A DNA stretch of 64,000 bases from the IMG/VR virus record IMGVR_UViG_3300022217_000228, positions 1-64,000 of that record; one strand, written 5' to 3'. Shown here in pieces: positions 4,582 through 64,000 of the stretch (position 1 is the stretch's first letter; each line of letters opens with the position of its first letter). The notes below the pieces were generated by a model. It saw only the letters and a list, made by a program, of their open reading frames with translations, had not been told where the DNA came from and ran no database searches. Source of the stretch: a virus (Duplodnaviria > Caudoviricetes). The translations under genes were made by a program, and so were the position numbers.

Positions 4582-4614
4582 ATATATTTCACATAATCAG
4601 TAGTTGGTGTCAAG
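4582..4614 (+). other. attI-like cassette entry site A
   Basis: ATATATTTCACA-9 nt-GTTGGTGTCAAG directly before the first + strand cassette; same 12-mer at 49297-49308. Confidence 0.55.
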
Positions 4615-4647
4615 TTTTTGAACTTTTAATTTGGAGGAAATTTTACT

Positions 4648-4956
4648 ATGTGGAGATTATTGGAAGTCGGTGAAGTTCGTCAGAGAGATGATGAATATAT
4701 ACTCAATGCGAATCCGTGGGAACCTATTGGGTCAATCATCGGAATACCGTTTAAAGATGGTGACAACCCGGTGCGCCGTAAAATTTCGGATAATTCGGAG
4801 GTTCAAAAACCAACCGCTAACATCGACTATACGGCGGTGCTTAAAAAGGAACTGAATCAATGGATTAATTCAGCGCCATCAGTTGTTGCCGAGAAAGATA
4901 TTCATCAATTTGCAGCGCACCTCAATGCCGTGATAAACAAACGGCACTGCACATAG
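4648..4956 (+). CDS. Cassette-borne hypothetical protein, translated through its attC
   Basis: GGAGG RBS; PTANIDYTAV is encoded by the hairpin left arm. Confidence 0.7.
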   Translation: MWRLLEVGEVRQRDDEYILNANPWEPIGSIIGIPFKDGDNPVRRKISDNSEVQKPTANIDYTAVLKKELNQWINSAPSVVAEKDIHQFAAHLNAVINKRHCT

Positions 4957-4973
4957 TCGAGAACCGTTGTGCG
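4814..4973 (+). other. attC-like site
   Basis: CCGCTAAC-ATCGACTATACGGCGGTGC ... GCACTGCACATAGTCGA-GAACC-GTTGTGCG. Confidence 0.8.
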
Positions 4974-5004
4974 AAATGTTTTTTTGAGAGTATAGGAGTT
5001 TGCC

Positions 5005-5235
5005 ATGACACTAAAAGAAGCATTTGATTTTTTGCAACAGAGGCATCGTGTTGTAGAAACCGAAAGCGATACCGAATCAAAATCATGGCAAGCTCTGAAG
5101 TCAGCGGTATTCGCTCAACAGCACTTAACAGGCGATAAAAACGAGCCGGAGGACATTACGCCCTGTGAACATGAGTGGAGGGCGGCGTGTACTCAGGCGA
5201 TTTGTAGGAAGTGTGGAGAAATATCAGATGATTAA
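5005..5235 (+). CDS. Cassette-borne hypothetical protein with Cys-rich C-terminus inside the attC loop
   Basis: AGGAG RBS; CEHEW...CRKCGE lies in the loop. Confidence 0.7.
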   Translation: MTLKEAFDFLQQRHRVVETESDTESKSWQALKSAVFAQQHLTGDKNEPEDITPCEHEWRAACTQAICRKCGEISDD

Positions 5236-5273
5236 CGACGGCGTAACGTCTTTTATCGCCGAACCGTTGGCCA
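5121..5273 (+). other. attC-like site
   Basis: CACTTAAC-AGGCGATAAAAACG ... CGTCTTTTATCGCC-GAACC-GTTGGCCA; same family as 63827-63992. Confidence 0.8.
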
Positions 5274-5277
5274 TAAT

Positions 5278-49005: not shown

Positions 49006-49136
49006 TTCACAACGGTCCGCGAATATGTGCAGTGCTGGAGCCATCCGGCTTATTTACGCGCCTTTGGGCTGGTGCCGAAACCCGCATAATCCAACTTAGT
49101 AGCACAACCAGCATTGCATATATTCGCTGTTGTATG
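49006..49136 (-). other. attC-like site of a solitary cassette
   Basis: CATACAAC-AGCGAATATATGCAATGCTGG ... CCAGCACTGCACATATTCGC-GGACC-GTTGTGAA. Confidence 0.85.
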
Positions 49137-49283
49137 TTGAAGGAGATTTCCTCCATAGTGTAAAAGCGATATGTTAATTATTTTTCCCGGACGGAACGGC
49201 CTTATCCGATGTTCCGTATATTTGATAATTAACTCTCGGATGCGATATCGCATTACAACCATAAAAGAAATCTCCTTTTGCAT
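49050..49283 (-). CDS. Cassette-borne hypothetical protein (likely start 49262)
   Basis: AAGGAG RBS just after the entry core; HTTANI is encoded by the hairpin arm. Confidence 0.6.
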   Translation of the reverse strand: MQKEISFMVVMRYRIRELIIKYTEHRIRPFRPGKIINISLLHYGGNLLQHTTANICNAGCATKLDYAGFGTSPKARK

Positions 49284-49308
49284 ACAACTATATTAGTGTG
49301 AAATATAT
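49277..49308 (-). other. attI-like cassette entry site B
   Basis: ATATATTTCACA-8 nt-GTTGTATGCAAA. Confidence 0.55.
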
Positions 49309-57030: not shown

Positions 57031-57114
57031 AAAACGATTTTACCCACTGCTTATCAGATTTTCTTTTAACCACGATTCCACAGTGTACACACCTGTATTT
57101 TCTGATTCGTATTT

Positions 57115-57303
57115 TCATTGCTGTGTTATAGGCTGTTGGCAAGATTCCTCATTTCTTAAAATGCGAGGACAATCACCCTCTTCACAACGATGTGTTTCGT
57201 TAATTCTCGACAAACAAACATAGCCCAAATTACCCCCATGACAGCGTTCACGCGCATTACAAAACCATTTGAATTTATCGAAATCTTCATTTAATAGAAG
57301 CAT
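57115..57303 (-). CDS. Last cassette gene, Cys-rich; followed by a degenerate attC
   Basis: GGAG RBS; inverse core GCCTATAAC at 57125-57133. Confidence 0.65.
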   Translation of the reverse strand: MLLLNEDFDKFKWFCNARERCHGGNLGYVCLSRINETHRCEEGDCPRILRNEESCQQPITQQ

Positions 57304-57332
57304 TTTACTCCAATCGTTTTGAATTGCCTATT

Positions 57333-57468
57333 GCCTACAACGTTTGCGAAATGTGCGCCGTTAAAACCTATAGCCACAATGAGGACACGATTCAACGGTA
57401 TCCACCTTGATTAACTTACGACAACCAGGGCACGGCTCTTTTAATGGCGCACTTTCTGCTGTTGATGG
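57333..57468 (-). other. attC-like site S1
   Basis: + strand: GCCTACAAC-GTTTGCGAAATGTGCGCC ... GGCGCACTTTCTGCT-GTTGATGG. Confidence 0.88.
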
Positions 57469-57645
57469 TTGTGCTACGGGTTCCACAGTGTAATCAGCGC
57501 TCGACAGGAAATTTTCCAACCCTCGTAATTCTGCCTGTGCTGCCCGTTCACAACCGAGTTTAACTTCATTACCTGCTAATTGTTCAACAGCTATACTACT
57601 GGAAATAACCTTTAATCTGGACTCGATATATTCTGATAGTTTCAT
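57361..57645 (-). CDS. Cassette gene with C-terminal Zn ribbon inside the attC loop
   Basis: CPGC...CPHC. Confidence 0.7.
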   Translation of the reverse strand: MKLSEYIESRLKVISSSIAVEQLAGNEVKLGCERAAQAELRGLENFLSSADYTVEPVAQPSTAESAPLKEPCPGCRKLIKVDTVESCPHCGYRF

Positions 57646-57680
57646 AATTGCGTTTATCCAATCTATTTAAGAGTAGCATT

Positions 57681-57857
57681 TCCACCAACGGACTAGGCAT
57701 CCGCCCGAAGTTGCCGTTCTAAAAATTCGTGATACATTTCTGCCATAAAAACAACATCATCTTTAATGCCACCTGCTCCAATTTCCCACAAATATTCAAT
57801 AAATGATTCCTTATTGTCTTCCCATAACGGCAATTTTGGGCTGCCTGGGTTGGTGGA
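57681..57857 (-). other. attC-like site S2
   Basis: TCCACCAAC..AGGCATCCGCCCGAAGTTGCCG ... CGGCAATTTTGGGCTGCCT..GTTGGTGGA. Confidence 0.88.
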
Positions 57858-57986
57858 TGCGTTTTCGACCTTAGTTAAAGCTTCTTTTATGCGATACCAC
57901 GAATCAATAACTTTTTCTGGGTGACAAATATATTTAAAACTTGAGTCTATCGTTTTTATGTCATCAGTAAGCATAAAAGACTCCAA
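57693..57986 (-). CDS. Cassette gene, related to 63546-63797
   Basis: Shared STNxGSPKLP and RQLRAxA. Confidence 0.7.
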   Translation of the reverse strand: MESFMLTDDIKTIDSSFKYICHPEKVIDSWYRIKEALTKVENASTNPGSPKLPLWEDNKESFIEYLWEIGAGGIKDDVVFMAEMYHEFLERQLRADA

Positions 57987-58000
57987 TCAACTGAACGTTT

Positions 58001-58076
58001 CCACCAACGTCTTGGCATACCAGAAGTGCGTCAGCATTTGGGAGAGGCTTCCGAACCTGCTATTGTTTGTTATAGG
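58001..58076 (-). other. attC-like site S3 (short, weaker pairing)
   Basis: CCACCAAC..TGGCA..GAAG ... CTTC..TGCTA..GTTATAGG. Confidence 0.65.
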
Positions 58077-58083
58077 CTGTTTG

Positions 58084-58617
58084 TCAACCATCCTTATTAT
58101 CCTTTTTGGAGGCGGTCTTAGCATTAGCACAAAAATCTAACCATCCTTCCTTATTACCTGTTTTCAAAAATGGCTCTGCTGCGGCTAATACCTGAAGCGC
58201 GTTCGTGTAATATGTAAGACCTTCTCCGTGACTGCCCCAAAGGTTAGTAATTCCAAGGCAGGAAGCTAACGCCGATATCGTTGCCCCATGAGCAGACTGT
58301 AGAACATCAGAGCCGTTTTTGAATATCCAATCGAGGTTAGATTTTTGTGTAGCTTCTTCTTTCTCCTCATTTCCCCATTGCTGCAATAGATCCATACGAT
58401 CCGATTGAATTAATTCTAATTGTTGCTCGTAATACCATGACGATTCGCCTCTACCTTTTATATGAATGGTATATTGTTGCGATTCGCGTTTACCGCCTCC
58501 ATATTGGTCTTTATATGACCCAATTACAATAGCGTAACAGTCTGATTCAAAATGTGACATCGTGGGACCGAGGTCTTTTATTACGTGAACAAAGTCTCCT
58601 TTGTGATATTTTTGCAT
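58084..58617 (-). CDS. Cassette gene, hypothetical with SH3/KOW-like N-terminus
   Basis: KGDFVHV...AIVIGSY...SWY; GGAGG RBS. Confidence 0.75.
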   Translation of the reverse strand: MQKYHKGDFVHVIKDLGPTMSHFESDCYAIVIGSYKDQYGGGKRESQQYTIHIKGRGESSWYYEQQLELIQSDRMDLLQQWGNEEKEEATQKSNLDWIFKNGSDVLQSAHGATISALASCLGITNLWGSHGEGLTYYTNALQVLAAAEPFLKTGNKEGWLDFCANAKTASKKDNKDG

Positions 58618-58658
58618 TAGTAGCCTCCAAAACTACAATATAAAACGGTTGATAAATT

Positions 58659-58796
58659 GCCTATAACGGTTTGCGAAATGGCCGAAGTAGTGCACCCGCC
58701 GAAGCTCCCGTTGAGCTTGCACTGTTTATGTCGGGTTAGTGCGCGGCCCACGTCGGAAGTATCGAGTGCACTATTTTGACCTTTCGCTGTTATTGG
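58659..58796 (-). other. attC-like site S4
   Basis: GCCTATAAC..GCGAAATGGCCGAAGTAGTGCAC ... GTGCACTATTTTGACCTTTCGC-T-GTTATTGG; the ORF stop TAA lies in the inverse core. Confidence 0.9.
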
Positions 58797-58999
58797 CATG
58801 TTGTTGCCGATTCTATAGCCAACTTTTTTCGCTGGCGTTTATATTTAATACCTTTCCAACTTGAACAAAATCCATCGCTACTAGTACGAGTATCCTGTAA
58901 ATCACAGATACCAGGATTGGCGAATTTATCGTTTACCCATTTAGTATACCAAGTACAAGAACCGCATCGTTTTTTATGTATCAAAGCGAAAAACTCCAA
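58790..58999 (-). CDS. Cassette gene, small Cys-rich protein
   Basis: CGSC...C...C; GGAG RBS. Confidence 0.7.
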   Translation of the reverse strand: MEFFALIHKKRCGSCTWYTKWVNDKFANPGICDLQDTRTSSDGFCSSWKGIKYKRQRKKLAIESATTCQ

Positions 59000-59018
59000 T
59001 TCTCAAGAGGCAATAATT

Positions 59019-59097
59019 GCCCATAACGTTCGATGCTACCAGACGTTTTAATGTTCCGAAGGACAAGCGTCAGCGCCGCTGGTAGCATTTGTTGGCT
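59019..59097 (-). other. attC-like site S5
   Basis: GCCCATAAC..ATGCTACCAG ... CTGGTAGCAT-TT-GTTGGCTG. Confidence 0.85.
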
Positions 59098-59287
59098 GCT
59101 GTGCAGCGTGTTCCGCCATTGCTGCGGCGCATCTATCGGAAAATCGATTAAGCGCCGACAATACTCCAGGTTCCAAACAGATACGATCTGTAGGGTTTTC
59201 ATGATCATTTGCATGTAACCAGATAGCGTATCCATCAAAAAGACCATAGACACCATCTCCGAGATAATCTTTCATTACAAATTCCAT
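59048..59287 (-). CDS. Cassette gene, phage-type hypothetical (ORF track extends it upstream to 59455)
   Basis: KDYLGDGVY...ICLEP; AAAGG RBS. Confidence 0.7.
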   Translation of the reverse strand: MEFVMKDYLGDGVYGLFDGYAIWLHANDHENPTDRICLEPGVLSALNRFSDRCAAAMAEHAAQQPTNATSGADACPSEH

Positions 59288-59321
59288 TGCGCCGCCTTTC
59301 TGTAAATTTAAGAGCTGCATT

Positions 59322-59423
59322 GAACACAACGTTTCCAGGTTTGGTGAAGTGCCGCGTGTTTTTGCGGCATTTGCCGAAGGCCGAAGTGAGCTTGCGAACG
59401 GAGCACCAAACCTGTGTTGTAAG
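59322..59423 (-). other. attC-like site S6
   Basis: GAACACAAC..CAGGTTTGGTG ... CACCAAACCTG-T-GTTGTAAG. Confidence 0.88.
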
Positions 59424-59451
59424 CTGTAAACCTGCCCCTGCCTTTTGCCTT

Positions 59452-59700
59452 TCACGCCGCCGCCTTCTTTTTGTTCTTTTTAAAATATTCCTTCAGTATC
59501 ACGGATACTGTCTTGTTTCCCGATCTCTCATCCTCTTTCGCCTTTTTATCTATCATCGTCCAAAGGTTTGATTCAAGATAGATGCTTCGTGACGTCATTT
59601 GACTTGTTTTCATATTTTCATCTATTTTGGTGTAAGACATTATGAAATATATAAGACTTCCTCTTGCCTTTGTCCTCACTATAAATATTGCTGCTATCAC
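59452..59700 (-). CDS. Arc/ribbon-helix-helix-like DNA-binding protein (likely start 59640 or later)
   Basis: RSIYLESNLWTMIDKKAKEDERSGNKTVSVILKEYF. Confidence 0.65.
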   Translation of the reverse strand: MIAAIFIVRTKARGSLIYFIMSYTKIDENMKTSQMTSRSIYLESNLWTMIDKKAKEDERSGNKTVSVILKEYFKKNKKKAAA

Positions 59701-60034
59701 ACTTTATTGGAATAGCAATCCAAAGATCATTGTTTTTGTCGGGTTTATTATACTTATCCTGCAAAGTTGTATCGAAATGTTGAAATGTCTTACTATTGAT
59801 ATTGACAATTGGCTCAAGTTTAAACTGTATAGAATTGACATCAAGCTGCTTAGATATCCTTCCAAAAAGGAGAAATACGATGCAAAAGAGAAGAACTATC
59901 GTAATAAGGCTAACAGGAGAGTAGTATTCGCTGAACCTGTCTTGATAATACTGCAAGTCACGGTTTGTCTCGGTACCTTGTTTATTCTCTTTTGGGGAGC
60001 TATTCATTTTTCCTCTATTTTTTAACCTCATCAT
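59618..60034 (-). CDS. Hypothetical membrane protein; an antiparallel ORF (59642-60025, +) is equally open
   Basis: One transmembrane segment, co-oriented with the array; coding strand unresolved. Confidence 0.35.
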   Translation of the reverse strand: MMRLKNRGKMNSSPKENKQGTETNRDLQYYQDRFSEYYSPVSLITIVLLFCIVFLLFGRISKQLDVNSIQFKLEPIVNINSKTFQHFDTTLQDKYNKPDKNNDLWIAIPIKCDSSNIYSEDKGKRKSYIFHNVLHQNR

Positions 60035-60128
60035 GCACTATTAAATAATGTTAAAAATGATTATTCTTTTCAGTATGAAAACGTTGCTTCCTGGCTATCC
60101 GAGAATTATTAATAGCCATTGTTATCAT

Positions 60129-60449
60129 TCATTTTATATTCCTTTTTATTCTAACTTGTCTTTCGGCGGCGTCTTCCTGTCTTCGGGCAGGTTTTTTGCT
60201 TACAACGGGTTGCCGCACTCGCCAGCAGTACCCCACCGGAATAGTTTGCATTACCGGCAGCCTCGCACTTCTCGAACGTAGCGATCTCGTCCCAGAGCTT
60301 GAGGTATTGCTGGCTGCGGCTGTTGTACGATGTAAAGTGAGCTTCCTTAGTGTAAGCACAATCCAGCTTCGGAAGAAGTCTAATTTCACTTTTTGAAAAG
60401 TGCTACGACTTGAAAGTCCACTGTTTGGTTTAATTGTGCTTATTAACAT
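60129..60449 (-). CDS. Cassette ORF reading through the whole of S7
   Basis: RTTAAA in the usual frame; coding status uncertain. Confidence 0.4.
   Translation of the reverse strand: MLISTIKPNSGLSSRSTFQKVKLDFFRSWIVLTLRKLTLHRTTAAASNTSSSGTRSLRSRSARLPVMQTIPVGYCWRVRQPVVSKKPARRQEDAAERQVRIKRNIK
60198..60329 (-). other. attC-like site S7
   Basis: GCTTACAAC..GCCGCACTCGCCAGCAGTACC ... GGTATTGCTGGCTGCGGC-T-GTTGTACG. Confidence 0.88.
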
Positions 60450-60465
60450 GAAAGCTCACTTTATT

Positions 60466-60609
60466 TTGTACAACGGCTTCAGGCACCCGCCTGCCGTGGC
60501 CGATAGAAATCGTCTGCATCTCGAATACAATGATTTGCACCTAAAAGGCAACACTGCCCCTTTTTATTATCACAATCGTCAGGACATGGCAGGCTGCCTG
60601 GGTTAGAAG
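60466..60609 (-). other. attC-like site S8
   Basis: TTGTACAAC..CAGGCACCCGCCTGCCGTG ... CATGGCAGGCTGCCTG-G-GTTAGAAG. Confidence 0.88.
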
Positions 60610-60802
60610 CTGTGGGCTGGGTTCCGCTGCCTTTTGAAATTTTACGAAGTAACGTACCACCAAACATTAACGGATAAACACCTACAGCTTGCCCGGCATA
60701 TAAAAAACTACACTTCCCAGGCTCCTTCAACTCTATTACAACCACATCACCGACTTTAGAGTATCCGTTACCAGCTTCTCTATATCCCGGTATATTAATC
60801 AT
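60479..60802 (-). CDS. Cassette gene with Cys-rich tail in the attC loop (ORF track starts it at 60931)
   Basis: GGAGG RBS before MINIPG; CPDDC...CC...HC. Confidence 0.7.
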   Translation of the reverse strand: MINIPGYREAGNGYSKVGDVVVIELKEPGKCSFLYAGQAVGVYPLMFGGTLLRKISKGSGTQPTASNPGSLPCPDDCDNKKGQCCLLGANHCIRDADDFYRPRQAGA

Positions 60803-60838
60803 AGTAAAATTTCCTCCAATAAATTTAAGAGTCGCATT

Positions 60839-60995
60839 GCTTCTAACGTTTGCGAAACGTGCGCCGTTACTTGAAACACGGTTTATTAGCATAACAATGT
60901 AGATTTTTATTTTTAATAGTACATTCATCATAATAACAACACGGCCTTGCGCTCCATTCTTCGTATTCTAATGGCGCACTTTCTGCTGTTGGATG
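60839..60995 (-). other. attC-like site S9 (same family as S1)
   Basis: GCTTCTAAC-GTTTGCGAAACGTGCGCC ... GGCGCACTTTCTGCT-GTTGGATG. Confidence 0.88.
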
Positions 60996-61166
60996 CTGTT
61001 GCTCGGCGCTCCCCTTGCCCTGCCGGGCTTCACCGCAGTACAATTCCATAACATCAGATACGTATAAATATCCACGCTTATCCCCATGAAAAGCTACCTT
61101 CACACTATTTAAACATGCATCGTTTAACTTATTATCGATTAAAAACTTCTGTTCCTTAGATCCCAT
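60867..61166 (-). CDS. Cassette gene with Cys-rich tail in the attC loop
   Basis: HPTAESAPL followed by CCYYDEC...HC...C. Confidence 0.7.
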   Translation of the reverse strand: MGSKEQKFLIDNKLNDACLNSVKVAFHGDKRGYLYVSDVMELYCGEARQGKGSAEQQHPTAESAPLEYEEWSARPCCYYDECTIKNKNLHCYANKPCFK

Positions 61167-61211
61167 AAAAACTACCTTTTACCCGGCCTTTAACATGGCC
61201 GCCGAGCAATT

Positions 61212-61293
61212 GCCACCAACGGGTTGCAAAACGTATTTAGTGCGGTACGCTCTCATACTGCCTCACCGCGTTGAATACTTTTGCTGTTATGGG
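61212..61293 (-). other. attC-like site S10
   Basis: GCCACCAAC..GCAAAACGTATTTAGTGCGGT ... ACCGCGTTGAATACTTTTGC-T-GTTATGGG. Confidence 0.9.
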
Positions 61294-61968
61294 CTGTAGC
61301 GCCCGATTCCTTATTTAAAACCGCAATGAGCTGTTCTCCGAGAAACTGCGTGTAAGCCGGCGGTATAGCTTGCGTTAACTCTTTCCTCGTCATCCAATCT
61401 ATGCCCATTGCGTTTCTCCACTCAATGACACTTCCCTTTGAGACATCACGCATGACTGTCCCCCATGTTTTCCAACGACCTGCACCACCGGCAACAGAAT
61501 AATAACCCTCTCCGATACGGCGACCGCGGTGTGATGGATGAGGAGGAATAAAAAAAAATGACTACAATCAAAATGGCGATGTCTGAAAACTTTTAAACCG
61601 AACATTAAACCACATAGCGTTATTGACTTATCAAGCGGAGCGCCTGGCACGTTTTCAACTACATATGGTATTCCAATTTTTTTTAATTCCGCAAGTGTCG
61701 GCGTAAGGTAATCAATATATTTTTTACCTCTGTTACGATGGACATTGGAAGCAATTGACCATTTCTGACATGGGGGAGAGGCATGTACTACATCGAATTC
61801 GTGATGATGATCCCGGAGATATTCCAGTGCATCAGATTGGATAAACTCAAATGGATACCGTTTTTGAAAAACAGTATCGACACCTACGATCTGAGTAAAG
61901 CCGGCCCTGAAATAACCCTTCGCTGCTCCACCTCCACCACAGTACAAATCTAAAAGTTTCCAGCTCAT
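61253..61968 (-). CDS. C5-cytosine DNA methyltransferase split by a -1 frameshift at a T9 run
   Basis: LLDLYCGGGG, HASPPCQ, VVENV in the first frame; MGIDWMT...QAIPPAYTQFLG in the -1 frame. Confidence 0.85.
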
Positions 61969-61998
61969 TGCCTATTTATTCTCCAAGAGGGCGGTATT

Positions 61999-62124
61999 GC
62001 CTATAACGTCTGATAAACGGGTGAAGTGTCTACCGGGTTTTTCGGCACACACCGAGAGGGCTGCCACCTTTGACCTCATAGTATTCATTTGTAGAATCAC
62101 ATTTCACCCTTTATTTGTTGTGTA
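61999..62124 (-). other. attC-like site S11
   Basis: GCCTATAAC..ATAAACGGGTGAAGTGT ... ACATTTCACCCTTTAT-TT-GTTGTGTA. Confidence 0.88.
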
Positions 62125-62237
62125 TTGGTTTTGCGCTTCCGCCATTTGGCAAAAACGACACACCAACACCATAACATATTTTTAGAATACTCAGTTGCTT
62201 CTTTACAGCCTATACACGGACACTTATCTTTTGCCAT
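62097..62237 (-). CDS. Cassette gene, 46 aa Cys-rich protein (ORF track starts it at 62462)
   Basis: GGGGA RBS; CPCIGC...WCWC. Confidence 0.55.
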   Translation of the reverse strand: MAKDKCPCIGCKEATEYSKNMLWCWCVVFAKWRKRKTNTQQIKGEM

Positions 62238-62259
62238 ACAATCCCCAAAAGCAAAACTT

Positions 62260-62444
62260 GTACACAACGGTTTAGCAAGGCAGAAGTTTGCGACTACAAT
62301 ATGGGCAAAACTGCATACCGTCAATTGACAAAATTGATTGTACCAATTCACCACAAGATGTATGAAAAAATCCACCATGCTCATTTTCCTTAATTTCCCA
62401 CTCGCAAATTTCCGGAGGCGAAAGCTGCCTTGCTTTGTTAGCGG
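62260..62444 (-). other. attC-like site S12
   Basis: GTACACAAC..AGCAAGGCAG-AAGTTTGCGA ... TCGCAAATTT..CTGCCTTGCT-TT-GTTAGCGG. Confidence 0.88.
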
Positions 62445-62616
62445 AATGTAATGCGAGTTCATTAGCTTTTAAGGCGGCAACTATTTCCCGGTGAAAACCA
62501 CCAAAAAGAGTTCTAAAATATTCACCCTTACCGTCTATCGATAAATCAGATATTGCAGTGTTCAAGTAAGCTCCGAGCCTACCATTCCCTGGATCGCACA
62601 TATTTGATATATCCAC
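62272..62616 (-). CDS. Cassette gene with Zn-ribbon domain in the attC loop
   Basis: CEW...TSCG...FCPYCS. Confidence 0.75.
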   Translation of the reverse strand: MDISNMCDPGNGRLGAYLNTAISDLSIDGKGEYFRTLFGGFHREIVAALKANELALHSANKARQLSPPEICEWEIKENEHGGFFHTSCGELVQSILSIDGMQFCPYCSRKLLPC

Positions 62617-62653
62617 TTATTGCCGCCTTTATAATAAATCTAAGAGCATTATT

Positions 62654-62736
62654 TCCGCTAACGGATTGGCAAAGAGCCGAAGTGCGGTACACTCTCATAT
62701 TTACTTACCCGCATTTTGGCTTTTGCCTGTTAGCGG
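62654..62736 (-). other. attC-like site S13
   Basis: TCCGCTAAC..GGCAAAGAGCCGAAGTGCGG ... CCGCATTTTGGCTTTTGCC-T-GTTAGCGG. Confidence 0.92.
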
Positions 62737-62752
62737 TTGTTTTGACCGCATC

Positions 62753-63109
62753 CTAATTATCCTTTCGGCGAACGGCGGTTACACACTCTCGATACTTAAC
62801 CATCCAATCGCCACAGTCTTCATGTGCCCACGGATCATCTTTATACTGTTCGTACAAGATGGAATCATGTTTCTTTAAATCATCTATAGTTGCATTATAG
62901 GCAAGAGGACAATCCCATGAATTACAGCATCCTGGCTCCTGCTTGTTCTTGAATTTAGACGCACAACCATAACCGCCGTTTGGTATATTATCACCTGTAC
63001 AAAATAATCCGCATTCTCCAGATAAATTATCAATGTCTATTAAAACTGGTACTATGTTTCTATATGCCATATTTTCTCCAGTGAGCCGAACTACAATCTC
63101 AGCGGTCAA
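62753..63109 (-). CDS. Cassette gene, Cys-rich hypothetical (possible start 63070)
   Basis: CGLFC, GYGC, CCNSWDCPL; stops before its attC. Confidence 0.7.
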   Translation of the reverse strand: MTAEIVVRLTGENMAYRNIVPVLIDIDNLSGECGLFCTGDNIPNGGYGCASKFKNKQEPGCCNSWDCPLAYNATIDDLKKHDSILYEQYKDDPWAHEDCGDWMVKYRECVTAVRRKDN

Positions 63110-63113
63110 AATT

Positions 63114-63277
63114 GCCGCTAACGGTTTAGGTTAAAAGAAGTGCCGCCATAAAGCAGCGTTACATTCTATACCACCACGCGAAAGGCAAAAGCTGCATCCA
63201 GCTACCGGACATTCGGAACATGAGGGCGGCATTTGCGGAGCCGTAGCGTTAGCGGAGCTTTTAACCTTTGTTGTGTG
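63114..63277 (-). other. attC-like site S14
   Basis: GCCGCTAAC..AGGTTAAAAG-AAGTGCCGCC ... GGCGGCATTT..CTTTTAACCT-TT-GTTGTGTG. Confidence 0.88.
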
Positions 63278-63502
63278 GGCGCTTCGCCGGACTGGTTTTG
63301 TTGACTCCACATTATCCAGTGATTCTATGAAAGCTGCTACTTGACGCAAGCAATCGGGACGCCACCAAGTTAGATCGTCGCTTATTAGACACCACCTTTT
63401 CTTTCGGCTTACCCACTCTTTATGTATACGGCCGATTGCAACTGTACGATAACCAAAAACTGTAAACCCTTTATCGTCCGCTTCTATTTTTAGAGCTTTC
63501 AT
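63131..63502 (-). CDS. Cassette gene, phage-type hypothetical with Cys-rich tail
   Basis: IGRI..W...WC...CLRQVAAFI; CSEC...CSFC in the loop. Confidence 0.75.
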   Translation of the reverse strand: MKALKIEADDKGFTVFGYRTVAIGRIHKEWVSRKKRWCLISDDLTWWRPDCLRQVAAFIESLDNVESTKPVRRSAHTTKVKSSANATAPQMPPSCSECPVAGCSFCLSRGGIECNAALWRHFF

Positions 63503-63533
63503 AAATCACCTTTAATATGGTTCAACAAAACTT

Positions 63534-63679
63534 GCGCACAACGTCTCAGGCACCCGCCCGAAGTTGCCGACACAGTTCATCGTAAAACTGCTGAGTTACC
63601 CACCTATGACGATCCTCTGCACCAGTAGCCTCAAACATCTCATCGTGTGTCGGCAATTTTGGGCTGCCTGTGTTGGTGG
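63534..63679 (-). other. attC-like site S15 (same family as S2)
   Basis: GCGCACAAC..CAGGCACCCGCCCGAAGTTGCCGACAC ... GTGTCGGCAATTTTGGGCTGCCTG-T-GTTGGTGG. Confidence 0.92.
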
Positions 63680-63797
63680 AAGTAAATTTTTCCTCCACCA
63701 GTTTTTTTATGCGGCCCCAAGCCTCCATCGGCCACAATTTGCCATAGCTAATGACCGCCTCTTCAACATCGGTAATATCCCCTTTGGTTATAAGCAT
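63546..63797 (-). CDS. Cassette gene, related to 57693-57986
   Basis: GGAG RBS; STNTGSPKLP, RQLRAGA. Confidence 0.7.
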   Translation of the reverse strand: MLITKGDITDVEEAVISYGKLWPMEAWGRIKKLVEEKFTSTNTGSPKLPTHDEMFEATGAEDRHRWVTQQFYDELCRQLRAGA

Positions 63798-63826
63798 ATA
63801 CTACAATCTCCAGAGAAAAATTTATT

Positions 63827-63992
63827 TCCACCAACGGATTGGCGATAACAGAAGTTACGCCGGTTGATAATTACTAAGACAATCTACCGAATTAATTTTC
63901 CACATACAATTAAGACCACCAACGCATCGTGAACAATTAGGCGTAATTTCCCCTTCGGGCAAGGCTTCCGCCGTGTTATCGCCTGTTGTAAG
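63827..63992 (-). other. attC-like site S16
   Basis: TCCACCAAC..GGCGATAACA ... TGTTATCGCC-T-GTTGTAAG. Confidence 0.88.
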
Positions 63993-63998
63993 CTGTGC
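63855..63998 (-). CDS. C-terminal part of a cassette gene entering from the right edge
   Basis: LTTGDN...EITPNCSRC...C...C resembles HLTGDKN...DITPC of 5005-5235. Confidence 0.5.
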   Translation of the reverse strand, partial: AQLTTGDNTAEALPEGEITPNCSRCVGGLNCMWKINSVDCLSNYQPA

Positions 63999-64000
63999 TG

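Follow-up and report, generated by a model that had tools for sequence, protein, structure and literature searches.

What kind of mobile unit built up the long run of hairpins and small genes near the end of the 64,000-nucleotide stretch analysed here, and which enzyme moved it? The stretch (hereafter the window) comprises positions 1 to 64,000 of the IMG/VR virus record IMGVR_UViG_3300022217_000228 (Duplodnaviria; Caudoviricetes). We consider it likely that the run is a phage-borne cassette array of the integron type, served most probably by a small Xer-like recombinase that acts in trans or has been lost from the lineage. Mapping of all AAC and GTT boxes on the plus strand showed 19 entry cores in alternation with 19 inverse cores and 18 hairpins interspersed; the run starts at 57125 and extends 888 bases beyond the window, to record base 64888. 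An initial annotation, made from the sequence alone, had listed 16 core pairs between 57115 and 63845; three more units, having entry cores at record positions 64233, 64523 and 64888, lie beyond that list.

According to that annotation, the entry core of a unit matches the reverse complement of the unit's own inverse core in 15 of 16 cases, as would result if each unit had been a circle opened at G/TT (here and below, the slash marks the cut). We found every listed pair in the sequence as given: eight pairs were perfect, seven had one or two mismatches, and the pair at 59330 was a true exception (3 of 6 positions). Using the six nucleotides after GTT in all 19 units, own entry and inverse cores matched at 96 of 114 positions, compared with 55.4 ± 5.3 for shuffled cores (z 7.7). 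A score this high never arose in 200,000 shuffles, so that the pairing is unit-specific. The cores that close each hairpin in place had been said usually to match worse, and they indeed matched at only 52 of 108 positions, equal to the shuffled mean.

The offset-pairing effect is larger than originally stated. The outer pairing extends over 18–24 nt in 11 of the 19 units, with a constant 2-nt mismatch at positions 10–11, and positions 13–24, which had not been used before, by themselves gave 136 matches out of 228 against 59.6 ± 7.7 in shuffled sets (z 9.9). The sites also folded better when circularised in silico: the mean free energy was −23.7 kcal/mol for the circular site, −20.5 kcal/mol for the site in the array and −19.7 kcal/mol when cores of other units were substituted, and the own core was the best of 19 for folding in 13 of 18 units (p 5e-4 and 8e-6). 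Both tests, together with the independently fixed boundaries described below, support the idea of former circles opened at G/TT. We do not follow the annotation in taking the near-perfect matches as a sign of recent insertion, since they can be explained just as well by purifying selection on the ability of the circular site to fold, and the same 22-nt pairing is also present in arrays of unrelated phages.

The offset pairing is symmetric and fits either strand; alone it cannot decide which strand to read or where the units begin and end, and other evidence was therefore required for the boundaries. In a solo cassette and a two-unit satellite array elsewhere in the window (Table 1), the gene body is the part next to the entry point, with the hairpin at the opposite end. 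In 10 units the open reading frame (ORF) reads through the hairpin and stops 4–27 nt before the exit core. Residues 72–94 of the unit 1 protein match Pfam family UPF0547 with 30.3 bits (cut-off 29 bits), and the paralogy between units 2 and 15 spans the inverse core. From the solo and satellite layout, the ORF stops, the unit 1 zinc ribbon and the unit 2/15 paralogy, the boundaries are placed at G/TT on the ORF-sense strand, where the order of a unit is TT with the rest of the core, leader, ORF, inverse core, hairpin and G. A plus-strand reading with the cut at the inverse core fits the bulge geometry but was ruled out by the layout of the solo and satellite cassettes, by where the ORFs stop and by the paralogy of units 2 and 15. 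In the satellite units (4800-4975 and 5105-5275), the GTT box closing the hairpin mismatches the entry core, and a second box 7–10 nt outward matches it (GTTGGTTTT, GTTGAGCGA).

A 14-nt motif, TATATTTCACAYNA, occurs exactly three times in 73 kb (0.015 copies expected). Each copy stands 5–7 nt before the first G/TT of one of the three arrays of 19, 2 and 1 units, and the three loci are found on both strands, 8–52 kb apart. We read this motif as a putative attI-like entry site.

The structure of the sites was taken from per-site folds and fixed-register counts. The hairpin interiors had a median z of −3.0 relative to shuffles, and the gene segments between them a median of 0.1. Beside the boxes, an inner 6-bp helix is perfect in 14 of 18 sites; it is built from 17 different hexamers, which indicates that structure is conserved and sequence is not. 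Only AAC and GTT are invariant: the strict consensus GTTRRRY and RYYYAAC recovered few cores, the typical core being GTTRNRGGC (for example, GTTATAGGC and GTTGTAAGC). An early stem search on the ORF-sense strand, later replaced, did no better than on shuffled sequence, and no shared structure emerged when seven sites were aligned with MAFFT and folded with RNAalifold, the loops being misaligned.

The strand complementary to the ORFs folds better than the ORF-sense strand (mean −23.7 versus −21.3 kcal/mol, a difference of 2.4 kcal/mol; p 4e-4), and G:T pairs are visible in its folds. The bottom strands of attC sites are likewise the more stable ones, by 2.12 kcal/mol, and carry G:T pairs (Nivina 2016). 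In attC sites, however, it is the arm facing the AAC triplet of the bottom strand that carries the extrahelical bases (Nivina 2016), whereas all 18 hairpin sites of the array and the solo site have a 4–5-nt bulge plus a single extra base on the AAC arm of the folding strand. The bulge asymmetry toward that arm ranged from +2 to +15 (median +4), and an aadA attC site from a Salmonella plasmid, scored in the same way as a control, gave −1, the canonical side. The spacer measures 4–5 nt on one arm and 0–2 nt on the other. The predicted cut sits at the inner end of a long (~22-bp) helix, beside this one-sided bulge. An unbiased but noisy scan of the geometry in other arrays, on the bottom strand, gave 46 positive and 23 negative sites, which supports a mirrored geometry without settling it.

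Arrays of the same type were found in nine unrelated phage contigs (L022, L024, L026, L028, L029, L032, L034, L039 and L040). Most of these arrays show the offset pairing, and in L022, L026, L032 and L039 it was checked nucleotide by nucleotide; the cassettes of L026, L032 and L039 have the same 22-nt pairing, the same mismatch at positions 10–11 and a one-sided bulge beside the cut. In L026, L032, L034 and L039, the array is directly preceded, on the same strand, by the gene of a tyrosine recombinase of 266–290 amino acids, with its stop codon 7–50 nt before the first G/TT. These recombinases form one family (45–100% identity) and align end to end with XerA of Pyrococcus abyssi (4a8e). Compared with VchIntIA, an integron integrase (IntI), they are without ~50 residues between positions 175 and 263, the site of the IntI-specific insertion. 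On the IntI model the recombinase scored 125 bits (cut-off 265) and about equally on the XerA model, which is below both cut-offs. In L038, which also encodes a member of the family, a lone GAAC-GTTGTACGCAAT stands ~50 nt past the recombinase stop (L038:3075-3185); this box may be an empty entry site.

Site families are common to different phages. Whole hairpins are 81–92% identical to those of L032 or L040 next to unrelated genes: the unit 10 and unit 5 hairpins are 81% and 83% identical, respectively, to L032 sites, and the arms of the second satellite hairpin are 90–92% identical to an L032 site. A 138-nt hairpin of L040 (L040:5129-5266) is 90% identical, from the inverse-core AAC to the exit GTT, to window positions 63539-63675 in unit 15, and there the inverse-core box, the entry core and the N-terminal coding part differ, so that the homology ends exactly at the inverse core. 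The L040 array begins just past a candidate tRNA-like sequence (L040:4585-4670), with the entry TACTATGGAGAG/TT and without an adjacent recombinase; this entry sequence resembles that of L032, GCGTATAGTGGAGAG/TT. An exact scan of IMG/VR for the shared 22-nt hairpin arm gave no match, and a scan of IMG/VR with the leader pattern gave 14 matches, all of them ordinary coding sequence.

Units 2 and 15 encode proteins of one family, which has members in other, unrelated phage contigs. The family is conserved only in the stretches that the site arms encode (...EEKFTSTNTGSPKLPT... and ...YDFICRQLRAGA-stop), the N-termini and loops being unrelated; what looks like a protein family is therefore a family of sites, all translated in one frame. 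When the peptide motif STNTG[SG]PKL, which this site family encodes, was searched in 185,579 prokaryote species (one genome each), five pattern matches were obtained, none of which encodes a relative.

The closest competing explanation, in our view an unlikely one, is that these are ordinary bacterial integron cassettes, that is, a cluster of attC sites lacking an integron integrase (CALIN) captured from the host and still serviced by the host IntI. The integron-like overall layout and the lack of a recombinase gene in this phage speak for it, as do the report of CALINs in phage genomes and the demonstration that IntI1 recombines five phage attC sites (Qi et al. 2023, PMC9892861). It is difficult to reconcile, however, with bulges that lie on the AAC arm in every site scored, opposite to the attC rule and to the aadA control, with cores most of which do not fit GTTRRRY, with the failure of the peptide motif to lead to any relative in the prokaryote species searched, and with the association of the same site families with non-IntI, Xer-like recombinases in other phages.

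We therefore favour a cassette system run by the Xer-like enzyme, and propose that each unit would once have been a circle in which the inverse-core and entry-core sides paired as an outer stem of ~22 bp around the hairpin. The strand complementary to the ORFs would have folded, and a tyrosine recombinase would have cut this strand at AA/C (G/TT on the ORF strand); the cut strand would then have been joined to the attI-like site or to the site of another cassette, by single-strand exchange as in integrons. The 3′ half of the outer stem would thereby have come to stand at the start of the unit, giving rise to the offset complementarity. The enzyme would belong to the Xer-like family found upstream of such arrays elsewhere, and would either act in trans or have been lost from this lineage. 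The leader of the unit carries a ribosome-binding site before the ORF. We infer the circles, the folding of this strand, the single-strand exchange and the identity of the enzyme, and likewise whether the array is still active, from sequence comparison.

Several points weigh against this proposal. The small recombinase gene is absent from this apparently complete genome, so the identity of the enzyme rests on its association with arrays in other contigs, and the family member in L038 has no array downstream. For unit 0 neither a fold nor a partner arm was found; the last site of the array is truncated, and at least that end is no longer functional. Recombination was not observed: among the contigs of the only sequencing run that contains this DNA, its probable source (a sediment metagenome), no junctions skip or circularise units, although contigs cannot show rare forms. 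Finally, the point at which homology of unit 15 with L040 breaks off is a hint that the exit-core G/TT may not be the only place of exchange; since R-box types also recur across phages, exchange at the inverse core is a possibility.

Some of these points would suit a history that we hold to be less probable still than service by a host IntI, in which the array was built in a recombinase-encoding phage and arrived as a block, a static relic into which no unit ever inserted here. The absent recombinase, the truncated distal site, the contigs without variant junctions and one frameshifted cassette gene all agree with it; yet three loci that each start at the same 14-nt motif fit repeated targeted insertion better, and the unit ends still pair well over 22 nt. 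The least probable is a crossover at the inverse core with the ORF-sense strand folding, or hairpins that are only terminators or regulatory stem-loops with matches from duplication: the offset complementarity, being symmetric, fits both readings, the bulge geometry is canonical on the ORF-sense strand and the L040 homology stops just at the inverse core, but such a crossover would split 10 ORFs, including the zinc ribbon that scores above the Pfam cut-off, and would conflict with the solo and satellite cassettes, whose gene body is next to the attI-like motif with the hairpin distal, and with the paralogy of units 2 and 15 across the inverse core, while hairpins that lie inside coding sequence, pair in a unit-specific manner (p < 5e-6) and form the same inner helix from so many hexamers argue against terminators.

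Table 1. Cassettes and putative entry motifs, in window coordinates unless marked as record positions.
Feature	Position	Strand	Remarks
Main cassette array, units 0-16	57108..64000	-	units 17 and 18 lie outside the window, to record 64888; attI-like motif at record 64908-64895
Unit 16	63835..64000	-	151-nt hairpin part in window; whole unit is record 63835-64232; ORF 64223->63855 through hairpin
Unit 15	63542..63834	-	entry core GTTGGTGGAA; own inverse core TTCCACCAAC at 63672-63681; outer pairing 21 nt
Unit 15 ORF	63797->63546	-	83 aa, reads through 131-nt hairpin
Unit 14	63122..63541	-	123-aa ORF 63502->63131 through 149-nt hairpin
Unit 13	62662..63121	-	ORF 63109->62753, then 68-nt hairpin; outer pairing 21 nt
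Unit 12	62268..62661	-	114-aa ORF 62616->62272 through 170-nt hairpin; both cores GTTAGCGGAA
Unit 11	62007..62267	-	small Cys-rich ORF and 111-nt hairpin
Unit 10	61220..62006	-	C5 cytosine DNA methyltransferase (Pfam DNA_methylase), split by frameshift; then 67-nt hairpin
Unit 9	60847..61219	-	99-aa ORF through 142-nt hairpin
Unit 8	60474..60846	-	107-aa ORF through 129-nt hairpin
Unit 7	60206..60473	-	ORFs of at most 11 aa only; structured body; 117-nt hairpin
Unit 6	59330..60205	-	largest unit; ribbon-helix-helix ORF 59610->59452; 87-nt hairpin
Unit 5	59027..59329	-	sole unit with mismatching cores (GTTGTGTTC vs GTTGGCTGC); 65-nt hairpin
Unit 4	58667..59026	-	69-aa ORF and 123-nt hairpin
Unit 3	58008..58666	-	177-aa ORF 58617->58084 and 62-nt hairpin
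Unit 2	57689..58007	-	paralogue of unit 15; ORF through 161-nt hairpin
Unit 1	57341..57688	-	94-aa ORF; C-terminal zinc ribbon encoded by loop of 121-nt hairpin
Unit 0	57108..57340	-	inverse core and start of inner arm; without 3′ arm and exit core
Solo cassette	49013..49287	-	between ordinary phage genes; TATAG/TTGTATGC, 70-aa ORF, CATACAAC, hairpin, GGACCG/TTGTGAAAAAGG
AttI-like motif, solo	49294..49307	-	TATATTTCACACTA; ends 5 nt before crossover G of solo cassette
Satellite array, 2 units	4604-4966 and 4967-5266	+	opposite strand to main array, between ordinary phage genes
AttI-like motif, satellite	4583..4596	+	TATATTTCACATAA; ends 6 nt before first crossover G (4603)

The cargo of the cassettes consists mostly of small proteins without an assigned function. 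The identifiable ones are the frameshifted C5 methyltransferase, an NrdR-like zinc ribbon and a ribbon-helix-helix protein. The methyltransferase of unit 10 changes frame near a run of nine A residues at 61550-61558 (T9 on the coding strand), and its two ORFs, 61968->61399 and 61453->61253, jointly align with an intact 258-aa homologue carried by a cassette in L026; the run may mark a pseudogene or a phase-variable tract, or the frame change may be a sequencing error. The 153-nt body of unit 7 is strongly structured (z −4.6 versus shuffles), and this unit may be a non-coding or decayed cassette. In unit 6, overlapping candidate ORFs are present on both strands of 59618-60034, the plus-strand one resembling a membrane protein, and the unit may comprise two genes acting as a module, for example a toxin and its antitoxin. 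The unit 3 protein (58084-58617) has 112 relatives, all metagenomic, and those inspected lie in compact phage gene blocks without hairpins; the cassette cargo thus appears to be drawn from the general phage gene pool. The related arrays carry RtcB (L039:7920-8720), a Lar-type restriction-alleviation protein (L022:9676-9891) and a C5 methyltransferase (L026:8296-9072), cargo that would fit a counter-defence role.

The virus record is 73,346 bp long and carries portal, terminase and virion genes. A contig from a second assembly of the same run is a circular permutation of it, and the genome therefore appears complete. No match to IntI (TIGR02249), Phage_integrase (PF00589) or the Y1 transposase (PF01797) was obtained in the record, and a profile of the phage recombinase family (L026 type) had no match in it. 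We considered as integrase a 346-aa ORF beside the array, which is an AAA_24 ATPase, and rejected an 86-aa ORF upstream of the array as a recombinase remnant. The flanking ATPase has two relatives, in L002 and L003, and as it is the only gene in common with these contigs, no comparison with an empty site is possible. The portal protein had no match among 50,697 cultured phage records and hence gave no clue to the host. Just upstream of the array, a 75-aa ORF (record 65285-65512; L001:9285-9512) consists almost entirely of Gly-Ser/Tyr/Asp repeats, and the contig of the second assembly breaks inside this repeat.

How does this system compare with those already known? As a principle, the offset pairing is known and is a textbook signature of integrons: a cassette circle cut at G/TT, with its own site complete only in the circle, is the standard definition of the integron cassette (ACID paper, PMC2674596). 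The present array shares with integrons, above all with sedentary chromosomal ones, the co-oriented, promoter-less cassettes of one gene and one site each, the hairpins running from an AAC box to a GTT box, and a predicted G/TT crossover that leaves the own site complete only in the circle. In both, site families are common to unrelated cassettes, an entry site heads each array, and the strand complementary to the genes folds better and holds G:T pairs. It differs from them in several respects. There is no IntI, and the enzyme linked to such arrays elsewhere is without the ~50-residue insertion and shares its coding strand with the cassettes. Bulge and extrahelical base are on the AAC arm instead of the GTT arm, the 4–5-nt spacer is one-sided instead of two-sided, and the outer stem is ~22 bp instead of 7 bp. 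Many ORFs are translated through the site, the replicon is a phage, and the core consensus of GTTRRRY and RYYYAAC is not followed.

Phage CALINs, which are rare and small (17 were reported in 10,705 phage genomes; Qi et al. 2023, PMC9892861), resemble the present arrays in being clusters of sites without an integrase, in virulent or uncharacterised phages, with DNA methyltransferase cassettes among the cargo. Those clusters were found with attC models, have at least two sites each and are recombined by IntI1, whereas here we observed 19, 2 and 1 units, a mirrored geometry and an attI-like motif in three copies. Because of this geometry, attC models may miss such sites or call them on the other strand. 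In the literature outside subscription journals, we found no paper on phage arrays with a non-IntI recombinase or with mirrored sites.

Outside the integrons, a precedent for the Xer-type exchange of one strand of a folded hairpin is offered by the CTX phage, which Val et al. in 2005 reportedly described as being integrated by XerC at dif via folded single-stranded DNA. There, a whole phage genome enters a site of the host chromosome, whereas here small cassettes accumulate within a phage genome. The promoter/stem-loop repeats (PeSLs) of T4-type phages, said to have been presented by Arbiol et al. in 2010 as 'mobile regulatory cassettes', are alike in that repeated stem-loops flank small accessory genes in hyperplastic regions of phages and are thought to shuffle them as modules. 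PeSLs, however, are repeats of promoter plus stem-loop that act through homology and have neither AAC/GTT boxes nor unit-specific offset pairing. Elements of the IS200/IS605 type or repetitive extragenic palindromic (REP) elements differ as well: no Y1 transposase match is present here, and a unit-specific offset pairing at G/TT is not one of their features.

Taken together, the comparison leads us to a broader conjecture, to which we give an even chance. Phages may own an analogue of the integron that is free of IntI, in which an Xer-like enzyme without the insertion that reads extrahelical bases acts on mirrored, folded sites with a 22-bp outer stem; cassettes and site families would circulate among unrelated phages, and phages without the enzyme, such as this one, would keep several attI-like docks that are loaded in trans. 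Since the ORFs cross the sites in a constant frame, C-terminal peptides encoded in the hairpins could also be swapped by exchange at the inverse core. Phages would by such means gain a dedicated route for trading small accessory genes. The offset pairing thus serves to fix the crossover and the unit boundaries of a phage cassette system that is probably not run by the integron integrase, and the rule believed to govern strand choice in integrons does not hold for its sites. Should the association with the Xer-like enzyme hold, single-stranded cassette recombination would have evolved or persisted without the IntI-specific domain, which bears on how integrons arose from Xer enzymes.

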